Below are positions 3,001 to 28,800 of a stretch of 64,000 bases of DNA, piece by piece. The stretch lies in contig OY253686.1 in the NCBI GenBank assembly GCA_958009085.1, positions 558,001-622,000 on the forward strand. The letters are read 5' to 3'. The translations under genes and the position numbers were made by a program. The notes under the pieces are model-generated. The model was not told where the DNA came from. It saw nothing but the letters and a program-made list of their open reading frames with translations, and made no database searches. The first letter of the stretch is position 1; each line of letters opens with the position of its first letter. This stretch comes from Protoeuglena noctilucae. Its lineage: Eukaryota.

Positions 3001-6000
3001 ACACCAACCACCCCACCCGCACCCGCACCCGCTGCCCTGCTTCCCCACCCCTCTCCCTCACCTCCGCCCCCTGCAGCACCCACATCCTACCCCCTTTACT
3101 ATCAATTCAACCCCCCTCCGCCCCACCCACCCCATAACCCCTCACCTCCGCCCCCTGCAGCAGCTGGGCCCTCCTGCCCTCTGCCTCCCCCACCAACAGC
3201 GCGTCGTCTATCCCGCAAGTGAACCCGAACGTCTGCAAATATCCCGTAAATAGTCGAGAGAAACAAGCGAGGAGCTTGCCAGCTGCCTCGTCACCATAAA
3301 GCTCATGCACGGCGTGCACAAGACCGTTTTTGCCGAACTGTGCTTTATCGATCACCCCAGCCAGCACGTCGTTACCCCGCACGATGAGCGTCGCCTCGTG
3401 GTTCCCCTTTCCCCAATACGCGGCCGGCACCTTGCCCCCGCATTGCATGGTCATCGGGGGCATGCCGCGCGTGAGCCACCCCAGCACCGCGCCCACCACC
3501 TGCTTGCCCGTCCACATCGGCCGGGGTTTGAGGACCGCCGGGGGTGGCAGCGGGGATTTGAATGCGTCTGCAGCCACCGCGCGCGTGGGTGCGCACGCCA
3601 GATACACCAGGTGCGTGAACTGGGCTCTTGTCAGAAACGCGTCGCGGCGCGTCAGAAGGGTAGCACCGAACACGTGGTCCTGGATGAGACCGCGGATGGG
3701 CTTGCCGTCTGTCGGAACGATGTATTGGTGGTCGGCGTGGACGATGTGGTAGCCCTCGGCGCGAGCCAAGTGATCCTGGGGGAGGTGGAGGTTGATCTCG
3801 TCCCCGTCAAAATCTGCGGGTGTGATTAGAGAGGGGATGAATTTTATAATAATAGTAGTAATAATTATAATATAAAAATAACAAAAAAAAATCAACCACG
3901 ATAAATTGCCATAAAATAAACAAAGAAGAAACAAAGAAGAAAGAAGCTAACCGTGTCCGGGCTCATACGAAGAGATTCAAATGTCAATAGGTCCTCATCG
4001 CCCTTTGGCTCGGAACCCAGTGCTTTTAATGGTGTAATCACGGCCCGGACACGCAAGTGGGGATGCGAAGGGGTGCACACAGACAGTGATGAATGCATGC
4101 GGATGGAAGTACATACAGCACAGTACAATGCATTAATATTCATTATCATTATCACCATCACGCACTCACCGGCGTTGAAGGTGGAGCAGTTGGCGTAGTG
4201 CATGCGGATGGTGCGTTCCCCCCTCAGCACCCGCGCCCGGTGCGCCATCAGGCCCGGCTTGTGCAGCGTGGGCTGGCGATTGGTGAGCATCAAATCACCG
4301 TCCATCAAGTGACGATACACCACCTGGGGGGCATAGGGACGGGGCATTAGAGAGTACTAGGGATGGTAAGTTGATAGTATGTTCATATTAACATGTGTTA
4401 ACCAATCGCTCGCCAGTGACCAACCACTCTACCCTTTATGAACACAAGCAGACACATTTACACCACCCATTCACCACACACCATCCAACCACCAATCATC
4501 CCATCAACACCCACCCCCACCCCTTCACCTGCGTCCTCCCCCTATCCGCCCTCGCCCCCCCCACCGCCCCCGCCTCCGTGGCTCCCCTCAGCAGCCCCTT
4601 GGCCAGCGCCTCTCTCTTATCTTTGCTCATCCTTTCCAACAACACCACCCGGCCCCTATCATCCTCGACCGCCACTGCGCCCGGATGCTCCTCCGCACCC
4701 CGCACCACCAACGCACGCAGCCGCTCCACGTTGTGTGGCGTCACGCGCTCCGGGAATGACAGCTTCTTGGCGAAATAGGGCGGCACGCCTATCTCCCCGG
4801 GGCTCAGGTACACGTCGGGGGAGATGACGGAGCGGGCGGCAAAGTTGACGCGCTTCCCCATCATGTGCATGCGGAACATGCCCTCCTGGGGGGTGAGGGA
4901 GAGTTGGGTTAGAATTGTTACAAGTAGTACTAATTTGTAATCATATAGATATACTATAATCAAATCATAAAGCCCCCTCATCCTTCTCGCCTTCTTCTCC
5001 AGCCTCTGCCGAATCCCCGGCGGCGCGGCCTTGTCCCCCTTCCCCGCCGTCTTTGAATCGATCAGCGCGTTGACCGCCCCCTGCAGCTCCAGCCACCGCT
5101 GCACCGACCGCCCCAGCCCCTCGCTCCCCATCGCCAGCAGGTCCAGCGACGTGGTGATGGCGCGCTGCAGCGAGGTGTTCTGTGCGTGTTCAAACACCTG
5201 GTCGCCGATGCGCGAGACGGGGCGGAACTTGTTGGGGGCCACGGGGAGGGTGCGCAGGAAGAAGAGGCGATAACCATGGGGGGCCTGGGTGGGGAAAGGA
5301 GAGAGGGGTTATATACCATATATATAATACTATAACTGATAGCCCACAACCAATACTTGCCTCGGCAGCGGTCGCGCGCCCGTTGGTGAAGGCCCCGAAC
5401 AGGTACCGCAGTGTGCGCCACTCCTTGGACCAGAGGAGCTTGAGCATCTCCTCCGCCTGGGGGTGGGCGAATGAGGGATTACTATAATTACTATGCATGG
5501 TGTTGTATGCTGCGTGGATATAGTGACGAGAACCAGTAATGGCCAGTACAAGGACATGATGCTAGGTAAATTTACAAACAACACTCATCAAGTATTGCTG
5601 AAATGAATCGGCACTTTAACAGCAATCGCAACGGCAATCACGCCCACCCCCCGCACCTCCGACGGCGTGACGTACTTGGGCCTCCGTTTCTCCACCCCGC
5701 CCTTCCCGCCATCCGCGCCCCCCGCACCATCCTCGCCGCTGCCCCCCATCTCTCGCGATCCCGTCTTTTTCGACGATATGCCGCTCTTCGCTGCGTCAAA
5801 TCCCTCGATGCCCCCCTTGTGGTCCGAACCCTCGGTCTGGGGATGCATGGGGAGGGTAGGTTGTGAGCGGAGCCGGACCCCTAGTCCTAGGCTAGAACTG
5901 GCGAGCAATAGGCCTGAGGCCTAAGCTGTGTGCCCTTTGAAGCGAGTCAGTCAGTCAGTAGGTTGTGAGCGGAGAGTTGAGGAATGTGCTGTCGGTGATG

Positions 6001-8563: not shown

Positions 8564-10811
8564 ATGAGGCCCGATGAGATCCTGTCCTCCTTCTTCGCGC
8601 TGCTGCGCACCTACCCTGCCATCGCGGCCCTCCTCGCCCTCTGCGCCGTGGCGGGGGCCGTAGCCTTCGTCGCGCTCCCATCCGGTTCTCAGGACGACGG
8701 TGAGAGCCGCGGATTTCTTTTGGTTTACGCGAGCCACACTATGTCGCTCGTAAGGTCGCCGGTGGCGGGGTTTGGGCGGGCGGCGGCCTCTCCGCGCGCG
8801 CGCCCGAGGGAACACATTGTCGACACCCAACGCAGCGCCGGCGCGCCCGCGCCGAGTCCCGCGCGCGTCTGTTGCGCCAGCATGGGTTTCCGTGTCCGTG
8901 CCCGGTGCCGGCGGTGCACCCAGCAAGCTCCCTCAGCCCGTCGGAGCGCCCCTGCGAGCCCTCGCCGCTGCCCCCGCTGTGGTCCTGCAGGCCCCGTGAC
9001 GCCCGCGCTGACCGGCTCCTGGATCAAGGTCAAGCTCGCGAAGCGCGTGGACTTGACGCACAACACAGGTGAGCCGGCGCGCGGCGCGCGATGGTGCGGC
9101 GCGGCGCGGATCCATTCCAGCGAACGCCGGCCGTCCCTTTGACTCCACGTAGCCCTCTTCCGATTCGCGCTGCCGGGCGGCCCGAAGCAGCCGCTGGGTC
9201 TTCCGATCGGTCACCACATCCGCTTCCGGTGAGCATCGCTCGCGCCCTGCGCGGCGTCGAAAGCCCTCGGCCTTGCCGTGGCATCGGTGAGTCCGCCGCG
9301 CGCCTCCGCCCGCAGCGCGATCGACGCGAACGGCGACAGCATCAAGCACAACGACACCGTTTTGTCGCGCTCCTACACCCCGGTGTCCACCCAGGACACC
9401 AAGGGCTACGTCGACTTTGGTGAGCGCCGGCAAATGCCGCCGCGCGCCGATCCCGCCGTTGCCGCGGCGATCGGCCTGACAGGCGCGGTGCATTCGATCA
9501 CAATAGCGCGATCTGCCCCTCGCTGGCCGCTGTCTGCGTGCTGCGGCGCGGGCGTGTGGGTGCAACTGCCGGCACCGCATGCGCACCCTTGCCCAGACCC
9601 ACCCTTGCCCTCCCACGCTCGATGCCTTACCTCACTATTTGCAGTGATCAAGATCTACCCCGATGGCGCCTTCACCCAGTGGCTCAACAAGCTCCCCCAG
9701 GGTGGCTACGTGATGTTTTACGGTCCCATGGGTCGCTTCGCCTATACGCCCAACCAGCACCGGGAGGTCGGCATGATTGCCGGCGGCACCGGTGCGTCTT
9801 AGCTTGTGTTGTCATCCGGCTTTCATGCGTTGATGTATATGCATTAATGCATCCGTGTATATCGCAGCCTGTGCGCATGCGTCGCCGCCGCACCACGCGC
9901 ATCGCTGGAACGTATGACTTTACCATGGCCCTGTGCTTTTCGTGCTTTCAGGCATCACGCCCATGTTCCAGATCATCCAGGCGGTGCTGACGGACCCCGA
10001 GGACAGGACGGTGCTGTCCCTGGTGTTCGCCAACGTGTCGGGTGAGCGGTGACTGGGTGTTGACGAGAGATGGTGGCTGTAGACAATTGTTCTCTGTGTC
10101 GGGCTTGCCACCGTGGACCATGTCGATAAGTCACGACTCATGTAGCTCCCCCCTCCTGCACCTCCACCCACACCCCACATGTGTCTGTTTCTGACACGCA
10201 GAGGAGGACATCCTTCTGCGCAAGGAGCTCGAGGCATTCGCGGAGAGCCACCCGGGTCGGTTCCGCATGCACCACGTCCTGAACAGGCCACCGGAGGTGA
10301 GGGGGTGGCAGTGGGTGTAACGCATGAGTGGGGTAGGTGATGAGTGAGGAAGCGATGTGTGGCGCATGATGGGTGGGTCGATGCCCGCGTCTTGTCCCAT
10401 GGGCCATCACATCACATCGCCTCCCTTGCTCTTGCGCGATCGCCGGTCCACATCACGCCCCCACTCCCACCGCCGCGCAGGGCTGGCAGGGCAGCACAGG
10501 GTTCGTGACAGCTGACATCATCAAGGCGCACCTGCCGGCGCCGGGGGAGGACGTCAAGGTGCTGAGGTGAGAGGACAGTGAAGGGGTGATATGGATATGA
10601 CGAGGGCGCTGTGGTGAGAGCCGTGATGAGTTAACAGGCGTGATGAGAGTGGCAACGACATTCCCACACTCTTGACCCCATCCCTCACCCCACCCCATAC
10701 CCCTGTCCAACCCCACACCCCCCCAGATGCGGCCCCCTCCCCATGATGCAAGCGATGAAGAAGGCACTCGACGGACTCGGATACGCAGCCGAGTCGCAGT
10801 TCGAGTTCTGA
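8564..10811 (+). CDS. CBR: NADH-cytochrome b5 reductase with N-terminal membrane anchor, about 9 exons
   Basis: Hydrophobic N-terminus, then [64 protein letters not shown] and CGPPPM...FEF, stop at 10809-10811. Confidence 0.93.
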
Positions 10812-12021: not shown

Positions 12022-14852
12022 TCACCCCTCCTCCCCCTTCCCCTCCCCCGCCAGTCCCGATACCCCGCCCGCACCCCCTACCCCTGACGCTCCACCCGCG
12101 TCCCCCACCCCTCTCCTAGCGTTGGCCATACCGTGCAAGAGCAAGTCGGTGGGTAGGTGCCATCGTGACCTCGCCCCCGCCCTGTCAACAAATCGCCACT
12201 CCAGCGCCGCCGGGATGTGAAACGGCGGCTCGTCGTCCTGAAAAAGGTTCGAGTCCGGCGGGGGGTCGTAACCCCCTTCTGGAAAAGGCGCGCCGGCGGG
12301 ATTCGATCCGTGACCTCGGGGAGGGGCCGGCGGTGGAAGATCCGAGGACGGCCCGGGTCCCATTGCGGTGCTCTGCGAGACACGCAGATTAGAGGGCGTG
12401 GAATCGGGTGGGCAGGTGTGATCTTTGCTGTGGCACAATCGCAGAATGGTGAGCGGCACATGGAGGTGCTGTCGAGCAATAAAGGTCACGATTACAACAG
12501 CCAAGCCGCATCCCACTGCGCCCCGACAGCTGACGCCTCACCGGCGCCCCGCCCCTCGTCGCCCCCGTCGCCCATGCCACCCACGCCCCCACATCCCACA
12601 CCCCACCGACCCCAGCTGTGGCACTCCCCACCCCCATCCCAGTCGCTGCCTGGGCTCTTTGCAGTCTCCCCACCCCCCCAACCCCGGACTGCATCGACGC
12701 ATGCCCCCCCTGGTTTGTCCCAGTCGCGACGTTGGCTGTCGCTGTCGTGCCAATGGCATTGTCGCTGTTCGCACTGTCGGCGTTTGGAACTCCGTCGGGC
12801 TTGTTGCGATGCAATGCGTCGCTGAGGAGGTGCCAGTCCCAGGGGAGGCCTCTGAGATGGCAAGGAAAGGAGGGTGTGGTGTTAATAGGTGTCAGTGGAC
12901 AGTGATACTACTCCGTAGTACCACTAGTATAACAATAAGTATTGATATAAGGTGAGCAAAACTGCAACACCTCGCGCCGCTCCCTAAGCACCGATCCCAC
13001 GCCCCACCCCGCTCACCTTGGTTGCTGCTCCAGTGGGGGCTTGTACGTCTTTGATTTCAAAAGGAGGTCCAGGTATTTAAATTGGAGCAGGAACCACAGG
13101 AAATCGAGCACCACAACCAGGTAAGCCAGGCAGACCCAGCCCACGTTGCTGCGTGGGGGAGGAGGGGGTGGCAGTGGGGGTGGCAGTGGGGGTGGCACTG
13201 AGGGTGTGTGCAAGCAGGAGATGCCTTGTGAACTATACATAAACGGTACATACTTTACAAACAATGACACATGCATCAAATCACAGCACATGCAAGTCTC
13301 ACTTCTGCGAGAAGGACATGACGCACGAGAACCCGAGCATGGCGAAGGAGCAGGGCACTCCGAGGGTGAAACACCAGAGGGCGAAGTGCCAGTCGGATTC
13401 AAATCGACTGGTCCAGACGATGTGGATGGGGGACTGGAGGGGAGGGGGGGCGTCCCCTTTCTGCAATGGTAAGGGTGGGGAGGGGTGGTGAGGGTGGTGC
13501 GAGGGTGATGCGACGGCAGTGAGGGTGAGGGTGAGGGTGATGCGATGGTGAGGGTGGCGAGGGTGAAGCGAAGAGGGTGAGTGTCATGGAATGGCAGTGA
13601 GAACAAGGGAATGGCAGTAAGGGTGAGTGGTGCAACAGAGAGGGCCGTGTTACGCAGCCTAGCATGTGCGAATCATCGCCACGGCCCCGCCACGACATCG
13701 CCCGCCTCGCCTTGTAGTGCTGCACGAACAGGAAGCACTTCTCCATGAACTTGGCCTCCATGTTTGGCGACACGAAGTGCCTCCCCACGCGCTGCATGCA
13801 CGCCGATATGAGCGTGCACGTGACCACGCTCGCCGTCATCAGCGACACCGTCAGGGCCACGGACGTGACGAAAAGGCCCTTGACCCACTGCGGGCGAGGG
13901 AGTTAAGGTAAATGGTTAGACAAACATGAGAAAATGTTGTGACAATGAGATGTGTCGAAACAATGTAACGAGACAGCTGATGCACAGACTGCAAGGCAGC
14001 ATATACACAGAAGATGTGCACTATATCTTTTACAAAGACAGAATCAAAGTGAGCGCGGATATCCATGTCAAACTTTGCAGCGCAGTGTGCAATGCTGGAC
14101 AGAAAGCGCGCCCCGCACCATGTATGCGTTGGGCGGGATGGCGAGGTTGACCATGCTCGTGACGGAGAAGATGCCAAGGAAGGCCCCGACGTGCGCGATG
14201 CCGGAGAGAATGTTGGTCTTCTCGTCAATGATGGTCCGGACGTGGGCGACGTAGCGGTCCCAAAGGTACCGCGCGTTCTCCACGGTGCGCTGCGCTGCGG
14301 GGATCGCGTCAACCAATAATTTAGTATACATGCTACCATTTGATTATCACAAGCGCGACTCGCGTGCAGCCTCTCACCGATCTCGGCCTCTACCCAGAGG
14401 CGCTCGTTGACGTACCGCTCCCTCTCGACCTTTCGCCAATCCATCTCGATCCTCCGCCTGCGCGGGTGACGCGTCAAACGGTTCTCAAGACGTCAGCATA
14501 AAAGGCGAGGCGTCCTCGCAATCCGGGCACCGCGGGGCCGCGGCCTTGTGGAAGCTCCGTCGTCGAGGGCCGTCCGCGCACTCATGCAAGCGCCCTCAAG
14601 CCTTTCCATCCCTCCCCTCACCCGTCCCTCTCGAATTCTCTCGCTTGGCTTGCATCCCACGCCTCGAGGCCTGCGAGGGGCCGCGCGGGCGGGTTGTTGA
14701 GAGCCAACGATGATGCACTGGGAATCCGCATCCGCCGATGGCTATAACCGCGAATGCCTGCGCGACGAGGTTCGTGGATTCAGATCGCAGCTCTCACCCT
14801 CCAGAAGAGACTGGAGGGCCTCGAAGGTGTGCTCCGCGATGCCCCCGGTCAT
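12022..14852 (-). CDS. Orai/CRAC-channel-like four-TM protein, paralog A (N at the selectivity-filter position)
   Basis: Assembled exons: MTGGIAEHTFEALQSLLEG|LEAWDASQAREFERDG|RRIEMDWRKVERERYVNERLWVEAEI|QRTVENARYLWDRYVAHVRTIIDEKTNILSGIAHVGAFLGIFSVTSMVNLAIP|TM2|RFESDWHFALWCFTLGVPCSFAMLG|TM4|GLPWDWHL. Exon structure is collinear with the two neighbouring paralogs. Confidence 0.75.
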
Positions 14853-15341
14853 TGCTCACGATGGCCGCGCCCGCCGGGCGCGCAGAGCGCGGCCGCAGCT
14901 TCTCCACCGCGCCCAGGGCGAGAAGCGGACTGACGCGGTAGTGCGCCCGCAGCACATCTCTTCGCGTTGTTTCAACACCCCTGCTACAAACATGGCACTG
15001 ACGCAGCAAGTTTCCCTGTGTCCCTATCGCATTCCTATGTCGCATGGCAGAATCACATCCCCGACGACGCCTGGTACAGCTCCCTGTGCCTTTGGCGAAG
15101 CGCAGAGGCAGCGTGCGGGAGCCTCGCAGTGCCCGGGAGACTCCACGCGAACGGCAGCCTGCGACACAGCATGTACAAATTGCAAGGGTCACAATCCTCG
15201 TTGCGCGCATTGCTTGACATAGCCATGTGCTCAAAGCTCGTGTGTTCTTGTCACTGCACACATGGTCAGCAGAATTACCCGCACACGCTGCGGCTCATCT
15301 CGACTTGCCCACACCACGACAGCACCGTCACCCCCCCAACC

Positions 15342-17098
15342 TCACCTCGTCTGCGTGTTCGCGTCGGAGTCCCGATACATCCGCCCGCGGCCCCCTCCGA
15401 TCCCCGCATACGCAGCCCCGTCCGCATCGCTCGACATCGCCCGCCCCAGCCCGGTCGGGTCCAACAAACACGACAGCCCTGCGCCCAGTTGCTTGAACAC
15501 CGCAAAGCATGCACCAATCAGCACGACCAGCTCCAAAGTCATCCACTGGCCGAGGCTGCGGGGGCATGGGAGGAAGGAAAGCGGTTAATCGGGTGATCCC
15601 GTAATGAGCGTACCTCAGCCCACTACACTGCCGGCTACGTTGCTCCCAGCCCCCTGGTTGCTAATAGAACCCATACTATATACGTTACATACAGCAACAT
15701 AGCATCACCACACAGCCCCGCCCCTCAAACTCACCCCCCCGGGAACTGCAGGATGCCGATGGCCCCGACGTACAGCATGCACGACGTGACAGCCGCATGA
15801 AACAGCAGGGTCGCCAGGCGGGCCGGGTTCCGGAAATGCGTCTCCCAGACAGTCTCGAAGGTCGGGGAGGGCCGCGGGGGCCTGTCACCCCTCTGCAGGG
15901 GTGAGGGAAGGGGGAGCGGTGGGGAGGCATGCAAGGGGTGGGGTAGGGTGGGTCCACGAGCGCACTGCAGGGACCGCCTGCCAGCATAGCCATGGGCGTC
16001 GCCGACCAGCCACGCTCGTGCCATCCCTCCCACACATGTTGCGCCCTGGTTGCGCTCCCTCACAGCAATGCGTGCCCCCTGCCCCGCATCACTCTCACCT
16101 GGTACTGCGTGACGAAATCGTGGCAATGGCCGAGGAAGGCCGCCTCCGGCTCCTGCGACACCAGCTTCTGGCACATGAGCTGCATGCCGGTGGCGATGTG
16201 CATGCTCAGCCCCATTGCGAGGATCGAGAATGTCGCGCCCGCCATCACCGCCACGCCGTACATGATCTGCTGCCACTGCAAATGCGCAGAGGAGGTAGCA
16301 ACATCGCATAGATAGTTTGTGTACAACATGGCTCAGCAAGCGACGGCCAGCTTTGCTAATGGCAGCCCATGGTCGTCATAGGTGTGGGTTCATTGGTATC
16401 GGCATCGCAGCAGACAGCGACTAGCTCCGGGCGGTGTCTCACCATCGGGGCGGTCGTGGGGACCTGGTACTGCATCGTGCCAGTGGTGGTGAACCCGGCA
16501 AGCAAGGCCGACAGACGAGAGATGAGCATCAGGCCCAACACGCGCTCCTTCACGAGCGTCTCCGTGCGGTCCACGAAACGCAGCCACAGGTACCGGGCGT
16601 TATCCAAAGCGCGCTGCTCTGCGAATGTTACGAATTATGTGACGCGTTCAGGAGCCCGCCAGCCGCGGCGGGACGCGCGCCGCGCAGGACGGGGCACGAC
16701 GCACCGACTTCCGCTTCCCACCACTGCTCCGACAGCGTGTGGATCCGGCGCTGGCGATCCCGCCAATTCAGATCCTCTTTACGCCTGCGAGCGCGGCATC
16801 CTCGCGGTCCGCGAGTCCCCGGCGCGACGCGGGTGGGCAGCATTGTCCACAAGGCAGGCCACGCAGCGCCGGGGCAGCAACCGCGCTATCCGCTTCCCAC
16901 GCGGGACACACCATTTCCTCTCCTCCTCCCAGAATCTCCTCTCGACATAATCGCCAAAAGCTGCGGGGAACGGCGCATATGTAAAAGCGCAGCCCACGCT
17001 CCTCTCTCTGCGCTCCATGCACGACGCACGCCTCTCTTACCCTCCTGGACAGCTCTGCCACTGGACAGGTCGGAAAATGGCCCCCATGGTCCCGGCAT
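15342..17098 (-). CDS. Orai/CRAC-channel-like four-TM protein, paralog B (Q at the selectivity-filter position)
   Basis: TM1 ISRLSALLAGFTTTGTMQYQVP aligns with human Orai1 [21 protein letters not shown]. It is preceded by EQRALDNARYLWLRFVDRTETLVKERV. Later exons: WQQIMYGVAVMAG..., RGDRPPRPSPTFETVWETHFRN..., and a last exon ending at the stop at 15342. Confidence 0.8.
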
Positions 17099-17310
17099 CG
17101 TCCCGGAATCGCGGACAACAGCGCAGTGGAGCTACATGGCCCCTTCGCCTGCCTGGGTGGCTCTCGCTTTCTTCGCAAGCTCCCAATCTCAACCTTGACA
17201 CGCAAACTAGCCAGCAGACCTAGTGCTGCCCGCACAAATGCATCCAGCGATGGCCCATTCCTGCGCAGGCTGCAGCACAGTAACTCTAACAACAACAACC
17301 ATGCCCCCCA

Positions 17311-19832
17311 TCACGGCTGCGAGTCTCTCCATCCGACGATCTCCGCCCGACCAGGGGACTGCGTCGATGCGGACGGCGCCCGCCAGTCCTCCCTACTCCG
17401 CCTCCCCATCGCACCTATGCCAGTCCCACCCCCACCACCTCCGGTTTCACTCCCACTCCCACCACCGTCCATTGCTCCATCCATCCCCCGCCCGGCCCCC
17501 GACACCGCCGCACCCCTCGCCCCGCCCCCATCCCCACCACCCACCCCTGCACCACTCCTATGCCCACCGCCCACCCCAGCCACCCTCTCCCTCGACACCC
17601 CAGCCGTCTCCGTTTCTCCCAAACCATCCAGCCCCGCCCCCTCTCGGAAACTCGTCCGCAGGCTAGTCACGCTCCCACTCCTGGCAGTGCGGAGCGTGGT
17701 GAGGGGGCTGGGTCGGTCCAGCCGCCCACCGGCATCGCTACCATCGCCATCGTTATCGCCATCGCCTCTCTCGCGGTACCCCTCGTCTCCGTCCAGGTAT
17801 GCGTCCGGCTTGAATGGCTCGTGGGGGTTGCGCGTGAGGTGCCAGTCATAGGGGAAGCCCCTGGGGTGGGGATAGGGGGGGTGAGGGTAGTGGTGGGGGT
17901 CGTGTGTGAGTTGTGGGGGTGCGTGGGGTTGTGTGGGGGTGAGTGGGGATGGTGAGGGTCGAGGGGATAACGACGGGCGATGAGAAGCTAGAGAGGGAGA
18001 AAGGTGGGTGCGCACCTGATCTCTGGCACGCCCTCCTGCTCACAGCCTACCCTCCTCACCTGATCTCAGGCACGCCCTCCTGCTCCCTGCCTAACTCGCG
18101 CTCCAGCACCGTGGAGATGTCCCTGGTCAGCAGCAGCCGCACCAATCGGAAGTGGCGCACGGCCATGACGACATATGCCACAAACAGCACGATCTCCATG
18201 TAGATCCACTCGTGGATGCTGGGGACAAGGCAGGCATGGATTGTGAGAACTATGACTTACAATTAAAAACAAGAAGATGACCGTCGTCTGTTTGATTCAA
18301 TCACTCATAACTCGCAGTCCGCCCCGCCTCGCCTGTTGGGGAACTTGATGGCGGCGATGAGCCCCAGCATGGCGAAGCAGCAGGGGATGCCGGCCATGAA
18401 GAGCAGCAGCGCGCGGTTCCAGTCTCGCTCGAACGACGTCGCCCACATCTTGTCAAAGGTGCGGGCGGGGCGGGGAGGGGCCACCGCGGCACCTGCCTGC
18501 GTGGAGGAGAGGCGGGGTGTGGCGCGTCGATCGCGACGACTATCAGTTGCCGATCGAGCTACGCAATGGTACTTGGTAAGTACCATTGCCATTATAAGGT
18601 GATAATGGCAATTAAGCACAGCGAAGACAGTCGGCAATTGGGTCCTCACCAACTCCACCCCTACTAACCCCCCTCTCCCCCACCACCCCCACTCCTCACC
18701 AGGTCGACCCCCCCCGTCCCCTTCTCCTTCGCCAGCGCCTCCTCCGCCAGCACTGCATCGTGCTGTGCTGCGTACTCCAGGCAAGCGTCGATGAACGCTG
18801 ACTCCGCCACCTCGTCCGTCAAATCCCTCCCCACACGTAGCACGCTCGCGGCCATGAGTGAAGATATGAGCATGGAAAGCATGAAACACGTGATGGCCAT
18901 GGCCACGGTCGCAGCCAATGCGGACTTGAGGTTCTGAGGTGGGGGAGACGGGGGAGAGATGGGGGTGGAGGGAGTGGTTGGTGATGGCGGTAGTGACGGT
19001 GGGGAGAAGGGTGAAACGGATGGCAGGAGGGATTGGCGGCGCGGGGGATGGAGTGGAAGGGCAGGAAAGAGACGGTGCCCGCAGGCTTGGGAGAGGGGCG
19101 CAAGGGTGCGTGCCATGCATGCGCTGCAGATGGTTGCGGGCCGCTCACCGGCAGCGCGTCGGCGGGGATGCCAAACTCGACGAGTCCGACGATGGAGAAT
19201 CCGCCGAACAGCACGGCCGTCCCGGCGAACAAAGTCAGCAGCTCCACTTTCTCCTCAATCATCGTCCGCGTATGGTCCACGAAACGCTTCCATATGTGGC
19301 GCGCGTTGTCCAGCAACCTCTGCTCTGCGAAGTGAAATCGCGCGCAGAAACTCCGGCGATGCGGGCGCGCGGGGAACTGCAACAAATCGCACTTGCACCC
19401 TGCCGAGCTGCTCGCAGCGTCCTCACCCGCTTCCGCGTTCCGCCAGTTGCGCTCCAGATGAACTCTGCTGAGCTCGTTATCGCGCCACTCCAGGTCCTCG
19501 ACGCGCCTGCGAGTTTGGAAGCAAACATTTGCATCGTGGGCAGCTGCTCAGGCTTGAAGAGCGACGAAGGGCTCGCGGCAATGCGACCTGCCGCTCACCA
19601 GTGACGATTCTCAGCCATGCGACGCCGCTTGACCGCGATATTCAGGCCTGCGGGCGGCGTGGTTTGGGAACCGGGCTTGCCAAAGACAATTGTAAGCGAG
19701 ACAGGTGGACCCTGCACACCCCGGCCCCGGCCAAGTTGCGTCGGCGAGTCTTTCACACACTCTTAGTCTATCGACATCGGCCTCACCCTCGAAGAGGGCC
19801 TGCGCGGCCTCGGAAAGCACAACAAAACTCAT
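17311..19832 (-). CDS. Orai/CRAC-channel-like four-TM protein, paralog C (keeps the E selectivity-filter residue)
   Basis: MSFVVLSEAAQALFEG|LNIAVKRRRMAENRHW|RVEDLEWRDNELSRVHLERNWRNAEA|EQRLLDNARHIWKRFVDHTRTMIEEKVELLTLFAGTAVLFGGFSIVGLVEFGIP|TM2|PPRPARTFDKMWATSFERDWNRALLLFMAGIP|TM4|GFPYDWHL. Confidence 0.8.
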
Positions 19833-20220
19833 GGTGTCGCCCTCCGCCCGCTCCCCGCGCAGCTACGCGCCAGCCCAGCCCATCCCACGTGCGCGTGCAC
19901 GAGATGCCCGCAAGTCGCACTCGGGCGCCTATGTTCAGCAGAAAGAGCGTGTGAAAGGGCGGGAAACACTTGTCATCCTTTGTCAACGGTCGTTGTTCAG
20001 ACAGGCGATGCTGGACGCGGCAGTTCGCATGCGGGACGGCGAGAGCATGACACTCGCCGTAGCGCAGAGGTGAGGGTGGGCTGCAAATCCCCCAGCGGCT
20101 CGCACACCTGCGTTTCGACACCTGCGTTTCGGCGCTCGCACTGAAAGCACAGGCCAGCGGCCTGCAGCACTCGCAGGCCCATGCAGGTAGCGCAGATGAT
20201 TGCGGGTGCCTTGCGGCACG

Positions 20221-21412
20221 ATGCTTGCCGCCATTCTGCTCGCTGCGCTCGCTGCGTTTGCGTTGGCCGGGAGGATCCTTCCCCCGGGGAGCACTCCCGA
20301 TGGCGTTGACAGCTGCGCCCATGGAGACCTGCGCTTGGCTCTCCAAATTCCACAAGGCGACATGACGTTCGCGCTGTGGCCCGACGTAGCGCCTAAAACC
20401 GTTGCCCACATCGTCGCGCTGGCCTCCATGGGCGCCTACGACACTAATCACATATTCCGGGTCGAGAAGGGCTTCGTTGCGCAAATCGCCGACGTCGTGG
20501 GCGGGCGGGAGCGCCCGTTGCACCGCGCGCAGCGGGCCGCGAAACACGTCCCCGCGGAATTCACAACCCGCTACTCCCACCAGGCGAGGGCGATGCGATG
20601 CTATGAGTGCTTACGAAGCATGCGCTGCACTGGAGCACGCGCTGGACTGCAGTGGCTGCAACGTCGCCCCTCCGCAGCGCGGCACGCTTTCCATGGCCCG
20701 CTTCGACGACCCGGACAGCGGCACGTCGTCTTTCAGCATTCTTCTGGGCAACGCGACTCATTTAAACAGCAAGTACACCATTTTCGGCGCCATGTTGGAC
20801 GGGGACGACGTGCTTGACAAGGCAAGCAATGAATTGACGATGGCGATGACAATGGCGCCGTGCATAGGCCCAGCGTGCATGTGCATCTCAGCATGCGTTC
20901 ATAGCACCCATCCCTGCTCATGAAGGTGGCTCATAGAGAGAGAGCGTGTCATGACAAGCGTATCTCCAGCTCGTCGATCAACCCTTGCCCCTTCCACAAC
21001 CACACGCACGCAGGTTGAGAGGGTGGAGGTCGTGGAGGGACCCTGGCACAACGGCATGAAAACGCCCAAGGATCGAATCCCGATCCTCTCGGCCTTCACA
21101 TACCGGGACCCCGAGTGCCCGCCAATCGTCACGCCCGCACCCCACGATGCACGAGATTCCATCATTGCGCCAGTCCAGCCGGTGTTGCCGGTGGCTATTC
21201 CCCCAATGCAGGGGAGTGTGGGGGGCAGTGGCTACGATGCCGCTGCACATGCGAGGCGTGGGGAGGCGAGCCCAGCGCACGTGTCGCTGTGTGCTGTGGC
21301 CGGGGCCACTCCGGCAGACGTCGATGTGCTTCTGAAACGGATCAACGCGCAGGCGTTGCTGCTGGAGACGCTGCGGGACAAGTGCCCCGCTCTCCTTCTC
21401 GACGCGTCGTAG
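20221..21412 (+). CDS. CYP23: Cyclophilin-type peptidyl-prolyl isomerase, CYP23-like, with signal peptide; 3 exons
   Basis: MLAAILLAALAAFALAG signal, then VAPKTVAHI, HIFRVEKGFVAQIADV and HQ|RGTLSMARFDDPDSGTSSFSILLGNATHLNSKYTIFG. Both introns (20584-20677, 20822-21013) have GC donors. Confidence 0.9.
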
Positions 21413-21829: not shown

Positions 21830-24719
21830 TCACCGCCCCTCCTCAGTCGCCGCCCCGGGGGTGTCCCACACAAACACGCCGCCCTCCTCCCCCACAGAAA
21901 CCACCCGCGACCGGTCGGGGGCCACGAGGACGCGCGTGACGGTGCCAGAGTGGCCCTGGCCCTTGTGAGTGCACGTGCCGTCATCGTAGTGCCACACCCG
22001 CACCAACTTGTCCCCGCCGCCCGTCACGAGCAACACGCCCTGGGCGTCCGTGCAGATGCTGGTGACTTCGGAGGAGTCGGAACCGTCGATGATGCGGATG
22101 GGCTGGCCGTCGAAGTTGTCCCAGTACGTGACCTTGCGGTCCGTGCCGCACGTGACGAGCTGCGAGTCGTCGGGGTGGTACGCCACGCCACGGAAGACCG
22201 TGTTGGCCTGCAGCGCGATGCGGCGCTTCATGGTGGCCAGGTCCCAGATGATGCAGGAGCCGTCGGCGGCCGCGGACGCGCACTCTTCGTCGCTCGAGTT
22301 GCGCATGGCGATGGACATGACCGCGCCCTTGTGCTCCTTCATCGAAGCCACCAGCGAGCGCTTGTCCTTGCCCAGGGACCACACCCTGGGGATAGGATGG
22401 GGGGGTTGTGGGGGGGTGGTGGTGGATCGATGAAAGCGTGATGTGGCGTGATGTGTTGTGTTGGGCAAAAAACAGCAGGAACAGGTCGCATGAGGAATAT
22501 AATGCAGTGAGTCCCGTAGCGATGCGTTGCACCATCTCAGCACCCACTCCCCAGTGCACCCACTGCCCACTCACCGCACGTTGCCCACCCTCACTCCACA
22601 CCAACCCACCGCCGTAGCTCACCTCACGGTGCCCTCCTCCCCCCCGCTGATGGCGAACTTGGAGTCGGAGGTGCTGGTGATGGCACTGACGCCCTTGGTG
22701 TGAGCATCGTGGATGGTCCAGAGCAAACGCCCCGTCTGGGGACCGAAGGCCCGGATGCGGCCGTCGGACCATCCCGACAGGAGGAGCTTGCCGTCGTCGG
22801 TGAAGGCCACACACTTGCAGTCCAGGTTGGGCACCACGATGCGCAGGAGCTCGCGGCACGTGTCGAGGTGCCAGATGCGGATCTCCTCGGTGGCCGCTGC
22901 GGGTGGGGAAAGGTGGGATGCGGTGGGGGTGGAGATGGCAGATGGGCCGACCATGACCGATGCGAAGACAGATGCAATATAACAACGCAGGTAGGATCTG
23001 CAGTCATTTACGTAACTATGATGCGATTCTTTGTCGCTGTAGGTAGGCTCTACTGTTGCCGTCAAGCGTCTCATCCAACGTGCCCTCACCGGTGGCAAAG
23101 CACTCCGAGTACTCGTAGGGGAAGGCCAGGTCGTTGATGGGGCCGCGGTGGGCCGTCTGCACGATCTCGCTGGCCATCTTGCCGGAGGCGCTGTCGACCA
23201 CCATGCGGTAGATGTCCGAGGAGGCGCACCCGACAAACACCGTGTACCGCCGGCCGTCCCAGCTGCCCGCGTCCACGGCGAGCGAGGTGATGGGCGAGGA
23301 CCCGACCTGCTCCGCGCTCTTGATCGGGATCTTGGAGCCCCGGGCGCCGTCGTCGTCCGCCCCCGCCGCGATGCACAGCAGCCCCGTGCCCCCGCCCACC
23401 AGGAGCGACCCGTCGGGGGCGGTGGCCATCGTCTGCGCCCCCAGCTCGATCAGGCCCTTCGCGGGACCCTGCTTCTGCATCAACTTCATCGCCAGGGACA
23501 CGCGCATGATGTCGCCTGCGGGCACAGAAGCACACGGTGACACCGTATGGGGGTGGCTTGGGGTGGCTTGGTGCAGTGGGTAGCTGGTGCCACTCTGCAG
23601 CATGCCTGTCCCGACTCACTCCCTTGCACAGCACCAGTGCCGTGGCCAACAGCATCGGGTAAACGTGTATCAGACACCAATTTCCCACCACCGCCCCTCA
23701 CCGGTCTTGGAGCCCACGTAGGCGAAGGTGTCGGTGTCATCGACTGTGACGGACAGGAACACGCGGGAGAGGGAGCCCAGGTTGACCGGGTGCGGCCGGA
23801 GCTTGTTGTTGACCTCGTCGTACTCCCACACGCACAGGTTGTAGTTGCCGCACGTGATCATGTGCATGGGCGAGCGCGCGAAGTAGCGCAGGTTGAGCGT
23901 GAAGTCGTTGCTGGTCGGCGAGCCGCACAGCGCCTGGCCCGTCGCCACGTCCCAGAGAACGAGGGAGTTGTCGTCCTGGCCGCCGAGAGACGCGAGGAAC
24001 CGGGGCTGGCCGATGGTGGCGTCATCGGGGGAGAAGGCCAGCGCCTGAACCTTCACCTTGTGCAGGCTCATCTGCGGGGGGAAGCAGACGCGTGCTTATC
24101 TGCCACTGCTGGCACAGACTCGTTTGAGGGGTTTTGTCAAGCGGTATGAGTCAGTCTTAGTACGACTGAGTGACGCTAAGCGACACACTGCGTGCGATGG
24201 CACTGTCGACCCAGCGCTGTGCTGCGCTGCCAGGGCTGGGTGACAGGCCCGCGCCGCCCCACCTTGTGCACGATTTCGAGCGTCTCGAGGTCCCAGAGGA
24301 TGATGGGCGCGGTGAAGCCCGTGTAGGTGACCTGGCCGGACGCGAGGTACTTGCCGCTACGGGACAGCGCCACGCACGACACCTGCGAGGGTGCCATAGG
24401 GGCACGAAGTTTGCGAACTGTGATTGGCATTGTTCATTGTTATGGCTGTTATGTTCAGTGGAGCCAGTGGAGAGCTGCAGGGCGTCGCAGGGGCTAAGGT
24501 TGACGAGGGCCGACATGCAGCAGGGTGCGTCTGTGTGTCCCTCACCTTGTCGGAGTGGCCCCTGAGGAACTTCTGGTCCGAGGGATCGTCACGACGGCGC
24601 ACGACGATCGTGGAACCGAGGGGGTAGATGACGTGGATGCCATCGGGGTGGCAGATGAGGCCGTCGGGGACGTCACCCGCAAAGCCTATCACCGAGCACA
24701 GGCCGAGTTCGTGCGACAT
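21830..24719 (-). CDS. CFAP52: Cilia- and flagella-associated WD40 protein 52 (FAP52/WDR16), 6 exons
   Basis: LCSVIGFAGDVPDGLICHPDGIHVIYPLGSTIVVR, FLRGHSDKVSCVALSRSGKYLASGQ, LASLGGQDDNSLVLWD, ELLRIVVPNLDC, SGWSDGRIRAFGPQTGRLL, QLVTCGTDRKVTYWD. Confidence 0.93.
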
Positions 24720-25827: not shown

Positions 25828-28800
25828 ATGGCCCCGCGCGACGCCCGGTGCCACACGTTCGACCCCCGCAGGCCGTCCGACATCGGGTCGAAAGGGAAGA
25901 AGCCGGCAGCGAAGGGTTTCACCGACGAGAACGCCAGCTGGCTGAAGCCGAGCAAGGCGAGTGCAGCCGCCGCTGCGCCTGGGGACTAGGGAAGCCCGCC
26001 GCCCCCCGCGCGGCCGCGCCGTCGCCGGGCAGCGGCTCCGGAGCTGATTGACGTGTCAAACTACAGATCGCGGACGGTACCCGGGCCCCGCGACGCCCGC
26101 GCCGGCCGCGGCGGAGGGTGCAGCACGGCGCGCGCTCGCGGCGCCTTCCCGCGACGCGTCCGGCCGCCTCGCGCAGAAACGGCGGGCGGAGGAGATCGCC
26201 GCGGAGGAGTCGGAGTCGGAATTGGAGGATGCGGATGACGGGGACGCGTTTGCGGGGTCGGGGTCGGGTGAGAGCGGGTCGCAGGGCGGCGGCGACGTGG
26301 GTGGGGGTGCCGAGAGCGACAGCGATGGGTCGGACGGCGCCATGGACGACGAGTTTGGGTCCGAGGGTGAGCTAGATGGACGCGATGGGGCTATCTTGTA
26401 TGCTTGGACATCAGCGTGCATGTTGTGCACGGGCGTGAGTGTTTACTTTGTTCTTGCGAACTGTTGTGGGATTCGTGGTTTCGCAGACATGGCCGGGTCG
26501 AGCAGCGACGAGGAGGGAGGGTCGGATGCGAGTGATTTGGATGATGGGGCCTCCAGTGGGGGCGAGGAGAGCGGTGGGGATGACGACGATGGGGATGATG
26601 ACGAGGATGAGGATGGGGATAGGGAGGGTGACACCGATGGTGACGATGATGACGGTGCTCCATTGACGGCGTTCGAGCGGAGGGCTCGTGACTTGGACCG
26701 CAAGCTGAGGAGGGAGAAGGAGGACGCGGAGAGGGAGGCGGAGGAGATGGCCGATGGGATGGAGGTGAGGGGTGGAGATGGGTGAGGGTGAGGTTGTTGT
26801 TGTTGCGATAGTGGGTATGAGTGAGGGTGAGGGTAGCAGTGAGGGTGGCAGTGGGGGTGGCAGTGGCAGTAAGGGTGGGGGTGAGGGTGAGGGTAAGGGT
26901 GGGGTTGGTACAGTTACCACCACCTACCGCTGTGTGCGTGGCGCCACCGTGCGCCTGCTGGCCTCATCTACACACCGCAACCATATGGCCCTTTGGTAGA
27001 TGTAAACACATGATGCATGTGCTCTTATCCGCAGACCAACATTGCGGACGGTCACCACGTGGCCCTGGCCGACGAGGAGGGCGGCCCATCCACGGCGGAC
27101 CTGGCCCTGGTGCAGCGGCGCATCAAGGAGGTGGTACGGGTGCTAGACAACTTCACCAAGCTCAGGTGAGGGGGGCAGAGGGGGTGACATTGGTAGGGGT
27201 GGTGCGGGTGCTGGACAACTTCACTATATTTATGACATCGTTCTATAGTACTATTGCTAATTGCACTTCACATCACCCGCCAATCTGCCCCACTCCCAGG
27301 GAGCCCGGCCGTTCTCGCAATGACTACCTGTCCTCCCTCAAAAAGGACCTGGCCACCTATTATGGATACAATGCATTCATGGTCGACTACATTCTCAACC
27401 TGTTCCCAGTCGCTGAGGCCATCGAGGTGAGACGAGTGACGCGTGTGTGGGTTTGCATATTAGTATAGGTGGTATGCATCGTGAGTTTTGGGATATATTT
27501 TATGAGTATGGGGAGGGATATGCGGTATTCATGATATCACGAGCGCGTAGTGCTGCACGAGTAATAAAATTGTTACTATCCGTTACGACATCAGCACTGT
27601 AGCATGACCAGTACTATTAACTATTCATAACCGCAACCACACCTATCTACCTCCATCTGAATCCCAGTTTATCGAGTCCAACGAGGTCAAGCGCCCCATT
27701 ACCCTCCGCACCAACACGCTCAAGACGCGGAGGCGTGAATTGGCGGCCGCGCTGATCAACCGGGGCGTGAACCTGGACCCGATCGGCAAGTGGTCGAAAG
27801 TGGGACTGGTGGTGTACGACTCCAAAGTGCCCGTGGGCGCTACTCCAGAATACATGGCGGGCCATTACATGCTGCAGGGCGCGTCGTCCTTTCTGCCGTG
27901 CCTGGCCCTCGCGCCGCAGCCGGGGGAGGTGAGGGGAGGGAGTTGGTGTTGCATTCCTCTGATATATGATGGTGTAGATTATAAATGATTATCTGCTTGT
28001 ACTGTTCAGAAAATGGATGGTCAAAGCCGTAAATGGCAGACTTTTGTATTATAGTTTATAGACTAATGTAATAATTACTCGTTTGACTAGTGCTATTTTA
28101 TAACAATACCCATCCCCATTAACCCCCTTCGCAGACGGTGGTGGACATGGCGGCTGCCCCGGGCGGCAAGACGACCTACGTGGCCTCTCTGATGCGCAAC
28201 ACCGGGACCGTCTTTGCCAACGACCCCAGCCGCGACCGGATGCGCGCCGTGGCCGCCAACGTGCAGCGGATGGGCGTCACCAACGCCATCTGCTGCTGCT
28301 ACCCTGGCCAGGAGCTGGTGAAAGTGGTGGGGCCCCATTCGGTGGACCGTGTGTTGCTGGACGCCCCCTGCAGCGGCACGGGCGTGATTGCCAAGGACCC
28401 CTCGGTCAAGATAAACAAGACCCAGCAGGATATCTACGATAACTGCTCCCGCCAGAAACAGCTGATACTGGCGGCGATTGACATGGTGGATCCCGTGTCC
28501 AAGACGGGGGGGTACGTGGTGTATTCCACCTGTTCGGTGTGCGTGGAGGAGAACGAGAATGTCATCAACTACGCGCTCAGGAAGAGGGACGTGAAGGTCG
28601 TGGAGTGCGGTGAGTGAGCGAGGGGTGGGGTGTGAGATGAGTGGGGTGTGTGGTGGGGTGTTAGATGTGTGGGGTGTGGGGTATCGTTGGGGTGGCATGG
28701 GGAATGGACTGCACTCCAGATGTCTTCTAACAACAAATGACTTCAAAACGTGCTATGATAATGTGCTTCTACTCCCTCCCCAGGCCTGGAGTTCGGCCGC

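Follow-up and report, generated by a model that had tools for sequence, protein, structure and literature searches.

Three tandem Orai-family genes with glutamate, glutamine and asparagine at the pore-ring position in the green alga Protoeuglena noctilucae

We analyzed a window of 64,000 nt from Protoeuglena noctilucae (OY253686.1, positions 558,001-622,000; all coordinates below are window positions) and found what are almost certainly three tandem Orai-family genes, A, B, and C, of this marine green alga, with a Glu (C), Gln (B), or Asn (A) residue in the predicted pore ring. Our data directly support the assignment to the family, the gene models, the transcription and splicing of the genes, the residues in the pore columns, and how common Gln is. 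At the site of the Glu on which the Ca2+ selectivity of the animal channel depends, Gln is present in about half of the green-lineage Orai proteins and in all streptophyte sequences of the main type that were seen. If this holds true, the "Orai" of plants and algae might be something other than a store-operated channel selective for Ca2+. The window represents a compact natural experiment, with three transcribed paralogs (B in its 3' half) from one clade and three different rings. As they form one recent clade, differ in the ring residue, and are transcribed, this question becomes directly testable. The locus is otherwise ordinary: a known family gains members, and there is no new fold or system.

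Gene structures and transcription

The three genes are located on the minus strand in the order C (19832-17311), B (17098-15053), and A (14852-12389, or to 12022). They are separated by short spacers of 212 nt between the C stop and the B ATG (17099-17310) and 200 nt between the B stop and the A ATG (14853-15052). A first-pass annotation had placed three same-strand paralogs at these positions, with shared intron positions and phases and highly diverged proteins, and our models bear this out, with the C ATG at 19832. A, B, and C have a common plan of 8 exons, with 7 intron positions in phases 1, 2, 1, 0, 0, 2, and 2, open frames, and canonical splice sites. Pairwise protein identity is 28%, 29%, and 32%. 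Exons 2-4 have the same length in all three genes (49, 80, and 176 nt). The 49-nt second exon, which the annotation had not spotted, is seen in RNA for A and predicted for B and C; it is required because the reading frame is otherwise not kept.

Gene C (17311-19832), modeled with support from RNA joints and its profile score, encodes an E-type paralog of 485 amino acids. Its exons 1-4 map to 19832-19787, 19647-19599, 19506-19427, and 19324-19149, and exons 5-8 to 18933-18700, 18496-18333, 18218-18060, and 17860-17311. Exon 4 (19149-19324) encodes the pre-TM1 helix and TM1, with the filter codon GAG (Glu) at 19178-19176. Gene B (15053-17098), a Q-type paralog of 337 amino acids, was modeled by homology to A and C, with exons 1-4 at 17098-17041, 16960-16912, 16784-16705, and 16618-16443, and exons 5-8 at 16275-16099, 15892-15735, 15555-15346, and 15158-15053. 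Its TM1 exon 4 (16443-16618) carries the filter codon CAG (Gln) at 16472-16470. Gene A (12389-14852) encodes an N-type paralog of 429 amino acids in exons 1-4 (14852-14798, 14670-14622, 14457-14378, 14294-14119) and exons 5-8 (13887-13711, 13460-13303, 13148-13017, 12851-12389); its filter codon AAC (Asn) is found at 14148-14146 in TM1 exon 4 (14119-14294). A motif following TM4, with the consensus GLPFDWH in a 16-member family alignment, reads GLPWDWHL at the start of the last exon of A (12827-12851) and GFPYDWHL in C (17836-17860), and the equivalent segment in B is LPFAWSLP (15134-15158). No further Orai-like exons were found in the 64-kb window, where a TM1 profile matches 3 of the 1009 ORFs only. 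A Pfam scan of 90 flanking ORFs yielded RNA polymerase I large subunit, FAD-binding domain, cyclophilin, WD40, and NOP2/Sun methyltransferase matches and no partner or sensor gene.

We traced transcription in three marine metatranscriptome runs from one study (X1-X3), together with a DNA run (X5). There are 24 joints, and the details given here come from the 15 listed. Twelve of these are RNA-only splice joints (A 7, B 2, C 3), which read GT-AG or GC-AG on the minus strand and are absent from X5, and the other 3 are DNA-run joints at a repeat. Spliced RNA contigs fully cover A and C, and the 3' half of B in three runs. Of the annotated paralogs, A and C are thus transcribed and spliced, and for B this holds in the 3' half. 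All 7 introns of A are present as RNA joints. In C, joints 18933/19149, 18496/18700, and 18218/18333 occur in X1-X3, and the remaining exons are consistent with the piece arithmetic of a 1232-nt X1 contig. Exon 4 is spanned by RNA contigs in A and, over its whole length, in C, with no differing letters listed, and in B it lies inside an X3 contig (16378-16618) with 0 differing letters. The last two introns of B are the only ones seen spliced among the listed joints, in three runs. Its 5' half has no spliced joint among the 15 of 24 listed, and cover is low or absent in some bins, with contigs being unable to show absence. Two B contigs enter introns, namely intron 4 (X2, 15735-16082) and intron 3 (X3, 16378-16618).

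Downstream of A, RNA contigs (12115-12377 in X1, 12119-12356 in X2) and an open frame point to a candidate extra 3' exon or 3' UTR at 12022-12388. Use of an intron at 12541-12373 (donor 12541, acceptor 12373), for which no joint is shown, would yield a protein of 495 amino acids with its stop at 12022; A without this intron stops at 12389. In each of X1-X3, an RNA contig lies across the spacer between C and B or within it (X1 16932-17379, X2 16932-17219, X3 16875-17153). At the spacer between B and A, an X1 contig of B extends to 14924, and the X1 contig of A starts near 14938 by piece arithmetic.

Family membership and origin of the three copies

Unspliced exon ORFs score 15.8, 12.7, and 16.5 bits against Pfam PF07856 (Orai-1), all below the cut-off of 25, and PF07856 membership of the spliced proteins is transitive, through Pfam-positive relatives. 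A profile of the TM1 exons of the three paralogs retrieved 157 proteins (E ≤ 1e-3) among 1.84 billion. Of the 150 relatives listed, 60 were scanned, and 58 passed the PF07856 cut-off with 31-181 bits; the other two are exon ORFs from the window itself. When compared end to end with a profile built from 16 Pfam-positive green-lineage Orai proteins, A reaches 218.5 bits, B 169.7, and C 212.5, and BLASTP to green-lineage relatives gives E values of 1e-35 to 5e-45. All 6 PDB matches of the 16-member profile are Drosophila Orai chains (E 8e-17 to 5e-16), with alignments extending over TM1-TM2 and TM3-TM4, in line with the annotation's assignment to Orai. Only profiles reach fly Orai: the Selaginella protein P0005, used as a single query, has no match in the PDB. 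A, B, and C each contain four hydrophobic segments, collinear with TM1-TM2 and TM3-TM4 of fly Orai via the profile. They keep 16, 19, and 17 of 25 near-invariant family columns, respectively. Of the TM1 G-F pair (human G98-F99), which in the family stands in a conserved A-L-L/I-A-G-F context, C and B have both residues; A reads I-F here, and its Gly precedes this pair by one position. Sequence comparison thus assigns A, B, and C to the Orai family PF07856.

A quick tree groups A, B, and C in one clade with an SH-aLRT value of 99, which could partly reflect long-branch attraction. Because they form a single clade, the locus appears to be a lineage-specific tandem triplication, with pore divergence, of a green-lineage Orai gene in a chlorophyte alga. 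A metagenome scan with the 16-member alignment returned 80 loci, many of them short, 79 of which have a TM1-like match; none contains a tandem pair, and in 7 loci with two matches these are two exon pieces of one gene each. The same kind of scan with the TM1-exon alignment gave 155 pattern matches, 0 of them confirmed, and a word-indexed search with the C TM1 exon gave 80 candidates, 0 of them significant.

In the tree, B sits on the longest branch (1.96); it also scores lowest against the profile, lacks two invariant residues, an Arg and a Trp, and has a degenerate post-TM4 motif. Together with its intron-entering contigs and the missing spliced joints in its 5' half, these features could indicate that B, or with lower likelihood A, is a duplicate decaying toward a pseudogene, with Gln and Asn reflecting relaxed constraint. 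However, the B frame is open over 8 exons with canonical splice sites and exons 2-4 of the same length as in A and C, B keeps the most near-invariant columns of the three, and three runs show splicing of its last two introns. A has the top family-profile score of the three and is fully spliced. We thus regard decay as very unlikely.

The pore ring and glutamine in the green lineage

The TM1 strings reported in the annotation are exact (C GFSIVGLVE, B GFTTTGTMQ, A IFSVTSMVN), and their anchoring on Orai1 TM1 is supported by a gapless profile-to-Drosophila Orai alignment, which places Glu, Gln, and Asn on the selectivity glutamate (human E106, fly E178). C thus has a CRAC-type glutamate ring residue, which is replaced by Gln in B and Asn in A. 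For the other columns, we use human numbers that we take to follow from the fly chain by an offset; they include the hydrophobic gate (V102, F99, L95) and the basic residues of the inner pore (R91, K87) of CRAC-type channels. Column 102 is Val in C and Thr in A and B, column 99 is Phe in all three proteins, and column 98 is Gly in C and B and Ile in A. Further inward, C, B, and A have Leu, Leu, and Phe at column 95, Gly, Arg, and His at column 91, and Thr, Met, and Ser at column 87; basic inner-pore residues are thus mostly absent (columns 91 and 87). A TM3 acidic residue of fly Orai corresponds to Met or Tyr in A, B, and C and to Asn in the family consensus. A and B have no acid at the filter or elsewhere in TM1 and the following loop, and reading of the sequences shows no Asp or Glu from the pre-TM1 helix through the TM1-TM2 loop to TM2.

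We next compared the filter column across the family. Among 281 aligned domains, 135 have Glu, 129 Gln, 3 Asn, 3 Asp, and 1 Ser, and the filter state switches at least 5-10 times on the family tree. Gln is found in 33 of the 39 named rows, including Chara, Closterium, Sphagnum, Ceratodon, Selaginella, Diphasiastrum, Chlorella, Coccomyxa, and Tetradesmus. It is the sole state among the listed rows of Closterium (n = 7), Coccomyxa (n = 4), and Selaginella (n = 3), as judged from the best 120 of 170 matches, which are protein matches rather than whole genomes, so that these species may have an E-type partner as well. In streptophytes, the Gln stands in a TM1 that is otherwise invariant (GFAVVTLTQF). 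Asn is rare, with one other representative (P0148). Since the Gln form is widespread among green algae and early land plants, it appears to be a natural channel variant of these organisms and not a broken copy, and Q-type subunits probably do not need an E-type partner to function because in several named lineages no other state was seen. The earlier notion that Gln is an oddity of this cluster, implying an obligate heteromer or a dominant-negative subunit, is not borne out by these numbers. Both Q and E types are present in Sphagnum and Diphasiastrum, where mixed assemblies would be possible in principle.

We propose that the product of each copy would be a pore subunit with four helices, as in the hexameric Orai channels, and that the copies, once duplicated, diverged to about 30% identity with an altered outer pore ring. 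C is likely a Ca2+-binding, Ca2+-permeable form, as its glutamate is kept. B would represent the Gln state carried by about half of the green-lineage homologs, and A the rare Asn state. The A and B pores may differ from a CRAC channel in being weakly selective or non-selective for Ca2+ and in having a gate of higher polarity, because they contain no acid in TM1 or the TM1-TM2 loop and have a Thr at the hydrophobic-gate position 102. Gating would not be by STIM, as STIM is reported to be absent from green algae; candidate regulatory parts are the conserved, charged N-terminal W-R-x-E-D repeats and the post-TM4 GLPFDWH motif. The three genes may thus encode sub-functionalized channels able to work alone, neither dead nor obligately heteromeric. 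How A, B, and C would conduct, select ions, form homomers, and be gated is what we infer here from their sequences. That they are independent channels with different selectivity is a tentative proposal, and triplication with independent, diverged pores, taken as a whole, falls just short of an even bet, an estimate dominated by the inferred mechanism.

Alternatively, A, B, and C could assemble obligately or preferentially in one hexamer, in which a mixed Glu/Gln/Asn ring would tune Ca2+ affinity and selectivity through its count of acidic side chains. The genes are adjacent on one strand, and their tight spacing and the RNA contigs across both spacers, in the same three runs for all three genes, are consistent with coordinated expression, an arrangement suited to a heteromer too. 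Heteromerization has been reported for human Orai1-3, and Sphagnum and Diphasiastrum likewise have E and Q types. Yet the paralogs are only 28-32% identical, packing TM helices included, the lineages with Gln as the sole type seen would need no E partner, and 0 of 80 metagenome loci contain a tandem pair. We therefore do not favor this rather unlikely arrangement. A and/or B could also be non-conducting regulatory subunits, natural dominant negatives damping C in the manner of human Orai1 E106Q, and their lack of an acidic residue at the outer pore would agree with such a role. This seems improbable to us, since Gln has been conserved over hundreds of millions of years of streptophytes in an otherwise invariant TM1, the fact that several lineages show no other state is easier to reconcile with a working pore than with an inhibitor without a target, and A and B keep most family-invariant residues. 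Independent channels remain our preferred reading. A broader and distinctly speculative idea is that amide-ring (Gln/Asn) Orai proteins form a widespread non-CRAC class, that the possibly co-transcribed E/Q/N triplet forms mixed hexamers in which the acidic count sets selectivity as a natural graded filter, and that a W-R-x-E-D/GLPFDWH gate operates independently of STIM.

Comparison with known Orai proteins

A branch of the Orai fold, Jiraiya/TMEM221 (PF15038), is said to lack Ca2+-binding residues (PMC7016017), and our Pfam scan gave weak Jiraiya matches in some relatives. Jiraiya is animal-restricted, whereas A, B, and C fall in the PF07856-type green-lineage Orai. Animal Orai/CRAC channels (human Orai1-3, Drosophila Orai; PDB 4HKR, 6BBF, 6AKI) share the Pfam family, the four TM helices, and the TM1 G-F hinge/gate pair with the window proteins. 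The ring glutamate is shared with C only, since B has Gln and A has Asn instead. Most of the basic residues of the inner pore are missing in the window proteins, the N- and C-terminal motifs differ, and identity between animal Orai and the green-lineage homologs is too low for a single-sequence match.

In human Orai1, E106Q is described in a review as loss-of-function and E106D as losing selectivity. The former is the same side-chain change as found in B, and the Asn in A is the amide of the E106D residue. Read literally, E106Q predicts B to be non-conducting, which counts against our explanation. The human mutations were engineered in a Ca2+-tuned pore, whereas the amide in the window is natural and conserved in many species, and the TM1 that contains it differs in further respects, for example in having Thr at 102 and a low number of basic residues.

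In reviews, green algae and early land plants are credited with "Orai Ca2+ channels"; these papers report STIM to be missing there and ask how these channels are gated without it. We found no functional study of green-lineage Orai, electrophysiology included, in the literature searched, in agreement with the annotation's view of an uncharacterized algal channel system, nor a remark on Gln at the filter in the papers found; supplementary alignments of PMC11085791 may show it. The green-lineage relatives, among them Orai proteins from Chlamydomonas (Cre01.g025000; PMC8318260), Selaginella, Sphagnum, Chara, Chlorella, and Pedinophyceae (P0004, P0005, P0013, P0050), are annotated as hypothetical or by homology only. 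Their alignments with A, B, and C extend from end to end, and shared features are the N-terminal W-R-x-E-D repeats, a GDxPPxP...W motif before TM3, GLPFDWH after TM4, and the alternative of Glu or Gln at the filter column. The best identity to these relatives is only 33-35%, and the window differs from them in having three tandem copies of one clade with Glu, Gln, and Asn at this position.

Three tandem Orai genes and their transcripts

Models built from the sequence place three Orai-like genes at window positions 12022-19832, all on the minus strand: gene C (19832-17311, 485 aa), gene B (17098-15053, 337 aa) and gene A (14852-12389, 429 aa). In A, a possible alternative 3' end with an extra intron (12541-12373) would extend the frame to 12022 and give 495 aa. 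All three genes have eight coding exons and the same intron phases (1,2,1,0,0,2,2). Exons 2, 3 and 4 measure exactly 49, 80 and 176 nt in each, exons 5 and 6 measure 177/177/234 nt and 158/158/164 nt in A/B/C, and the frame is kept only with the 49-nt exon 2. On the minus strand, 212 nt separate the C stop from the B ATG (17099-17310) and 200 nt the B stop from the A ATG (14853-15052). Pairwise protein identity is 28% for A-B, 29% for A-C and 32% for B-C. The tandem triplet noticed in the first-pass annotation is real, and its assignment to the Orai family is right, as judged from profile scores, Pfam-positive relatives and fly Orai as the sole PDB match. Unspliced exon ORFs gave weak, collinear Pfam Orai-1 matches in three of nine cases (12.7-16.5 bits; cut-off 25), and a profile built from the TM1 exons of all three genes gave four PDB matches, each to Drosophila Orai, at E about 0.4. 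Searched against 1.84 billion representative proteins, this profile yielded 157 matches at E<=1e-3; when the top 60 among 150 listed relatives were scanned, 58 passed PF07856 (31-181 bits), the other two being the window's own exon ORFs. Spliced proteins, assembled by joining exon coordinates, match these relatives in BLASTP at E 1e-35 to 5e-45 with 33-35% identity. A second profile, from 16 Pfam-positive green-lineage relatives, aligns end to end with A (218.5 bits), C (212.5) and B (169.7), and all six of its PDB matches are fly Orai chains (E 8e-17 to 5e-16), covering TM1-TM2 and TM3-TM4. Each protein has four hydrophobic segments, near-invariant family columns are kept at 16/25 (A), 19/25 (B) and 17/25 (C), and the whole 64-kb window contains only these three TM1-type exons.

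We compared three marine metatranscriptome runs (X1-X3) and one DNA run (X5) with the region for splice joints. In the sequencing-run search, four RNA runs of one such study contained 26-44% of the region's words, and DNA runs contained all of them. Of 24 joints in total, 15 were listed. Twelve of those listed come from RNA alone and, read on the minus strand, have GT-AG or GC-AG ends; X5 contains none of the twelve. Seven account for all introns of A, two for the last introns of B, and three belong to C. The remaining three listed are DNA-run joints at a repeat. A intron 6 contains a short C/G-rich repeat (13164-13206) where many X5 contigs begin, end or join. DNA depth in the bin at this C/G-rich repeat is 1716 versus about 56 elsewhere, as would be expected if copies were dispersed through the genome. 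The full C and A models fit the piece arithmetic of RNA contigs of 1232 and 1037 nt, respectively. RNA joints confirm two GC-AG introns, with minus-strand donors at 13709-13710 (A) and 18331-18332 (C); these follow A exon 5 and C exon 6, so that the two paralogs do not have them at the same intron position. As no spliced joint among the 15 listed lies in the 5' half of B, its first five exons rest on homology. RNA contigs reach into two B introns, 15893-16098 and 16276-16442, entering intron 4 in X2 (15735-16082) and intron 3 in X3 (16378-16618), which could reflect intron retention, pre-mRNA or trace DNA. At the 3' end of A, RNA contigs lie over 12115-12377, no RNA cover was seen over the G-rich low-complexity coding sequence at 12382-12675, and none of the listed joints falls within 12022-12540. 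Taken together, A, B and C are three intact, transcribed Orai-family pore subunits that differ in ring chemistry, the ring being the TM1 position aligned to the Orai selectivity glutamate. That one copy, mainly B, is decaying is the least probable of the accounts considered.

RNA contigs also span both spacers, for example 16932-17379 in X1, unspliced across B intron 1; a B contig ends at 14924 and, by arithmetic, an A contig begins near 14938. This RNA could represent overlapping UTRs or read-through/polycistronic RNA, and the contigs fit both alike. Polycistronic RNA is known in green algae (PMC7896298). Pfam searches of raw ORFs identified as flanking genes the RNA polymerase I largest subunit (3110-5308, minus), an FAD-binding oxidoreductase domain (9233-9799, plus), a cyclophilin (20200-20920, plus), a WD40 protein (21833-24095, minus) and a NOP2/Sun RNA methyltransferase (27608-28614, plus). 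These are housekeeping genes, with no obvious Ca2+ sensor among the neighbors identified by Pfam. Among named sequences, the polymerase subunit matches core chlorophytes best, at no more than 62% identity, indicating that the organism is a chlorophyte to which no sequenced member of the collection is closely related. The low identity of A, B and C to all other sequences is consistent with this.

Ring residues and history of the triplet

In all alignments the fly selectivity glutamate falls, gap-free, on Glu in C (GAG, 19178-19176), Gln in B (CAG, 16472-16470) and Asn in A (AAC, 14148-14146), all on the minus strand. No letters differing between RNA and DNA were reported, and the three codons are thus identical in RNA where covered. 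The selectivity residue is E178 in the fly protein (PMC11085791) and E106 in the human one (PMC7765462). The spliced A and B proteins contain no Asp or Glu from the pre-TM1 helix to TM2, and therefore an alternative alignment cannot provide an acidic ring. In human numbering, which apart from E106 we take to be a constant offset from the fly chain, column 102 is Val in C and Thr in A and B, column 99 is Phe throughout, column 98 is Gly in C and B and Ile in A, and column 91 is Gly in C, Arg in B and His in A. The E, Q and N filter residues proposed earlier, and the other TM1 columns named with them, were borne out.

A quick tree built from 54 domain rows unites A, B and C in a single clade (SH-aLRT 99), and on it the ring state changes at least 10 times, at least five of these changes being forced by well-supported branches. 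Since C and the nearest row outside the clade both carry Glu, the simplest history would be an E-type ancestor that triplicated within this lineage; a single base change would have turned GAG into CAG in B, and two changes would have given AAC in A.

Glutamine rings across the green lineage

We next considered the ring column across the family. The 160 aligned domains of the first search carry Q in 80 cases, E in 64, N in 3, D in 3, S in 1 and a gap in 9. With the second search, which contributes 120 of its 170 matches, there are 281 domains, five of them the window's own: E 135, Q 129, N 3, D 3, S 1 and gap 10. Gln is thus not special to this locus, a point on which the initial reading is revised. 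Among named rows, 33 of 39 are Q-type: Chara, Closterium (7), Sphagnum, Ceratodon, Selaginella (3) and Diphasiastrum (2) among streptophytes, where GFAVVTLTQF is nearly invariant, together with Chlorella, Micractinium, Coccomyxa (4), Tetradesmus, Monoraphidium, Chromochloris, Myrmecia, one Gb_ record and three SM records. The six E-type rows are Bryopsis, Cymbomonas, Pedinophyceae, Polytomella and a second plant type in Sphagnum (P0257) and Diphasiastrum (P0265), whose TM1 ends in SFTMTSPVEF or SFTMTSPIEF; both species contain this type alongside GFAVVTLTQF. Marine metagenome loci are mostly E-type (66 of the 72 with a single TM1-like match). Predicted proteins of Chromochloris zofingiensis (P0002) and [Myrmecia] bisecta (P0003) each contain two tandem Orai domains, all four Q-type. 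Either these are genuine tandem-dimer genes, or the models may have fused two neighboring genes; under either reading, tandem duplication of the family recurs in chlorophytes.

Proposed working and relation to known Orai channels

C would be the Ca2+-binding, Ca2+-permeable form. A and B combine an amide ring with Thr in the hydrophobic-gate column, basic residues are few in their inner pore, and these pores probably have weak or no Ca2+ selectivity. Among the matches listed (120 of 170 in the second search), several lineages show Q alone, suggesting that Q-type proteins are probably self-sufficient; Sphagnum and Diphasiastrum carry both types. We tentatively favor sub-functionalized, separately working channels. 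Against this stands E106Q, a loss-of-function mutant in human Orai1 (PMC7765462); a natural dominant negative at this locus seems unlikely. The tight gene spacing and the RNA over both spacers would also suit co-expressed partners, and an obligate heteromer of A, B and C, although doubtful, comes next after separate channels in our estimate.

The alignment revealed three motifs that are family-wide but fall outside the core shared with animal Orai: charged repeats (W-R-x-E-D) ahead of TM1, GDxPPxP...TF..W ahead of TM3 and GLPFDWH directly after TM4. In the window they map to minus-strand exons at 19427-19647, 16705-16960 and 14378-14670 and to the last-exon starts; the GLPFDWH-type motif begins at a phase-2 intron in A, B and C alike. 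Candidate regulatory parts are the repeats before TM1 and the GLPFDWH motif. Green algae are reported to lack STIM, and alternative gating is expected (PMC11085791, PMC8318260).

The available portions of PMC11085791, PMC7016017, PMC7765462, PMC11894410 and PMC8318260 give no functional data on green-algal or plant Orai and do not mention Gln at the filter, which may be in print elsewhere; a literature search for plant Orai with E106Q, or for the Physcomitrella Orai selectivity filter, likewise found nothing on Gln at this position. That Orai proteins of the green lineage commonly carry an amide ring in nature is the wider result, and a more interesting one than the locus itself. Orai is listed for green algae and for plants up to gymnosperms, with STIM missing (PMC11085791, PMC7016017, PMC11894410, PMC8318260), and the locus adds to this known family a new E/Q/N set in compact form.
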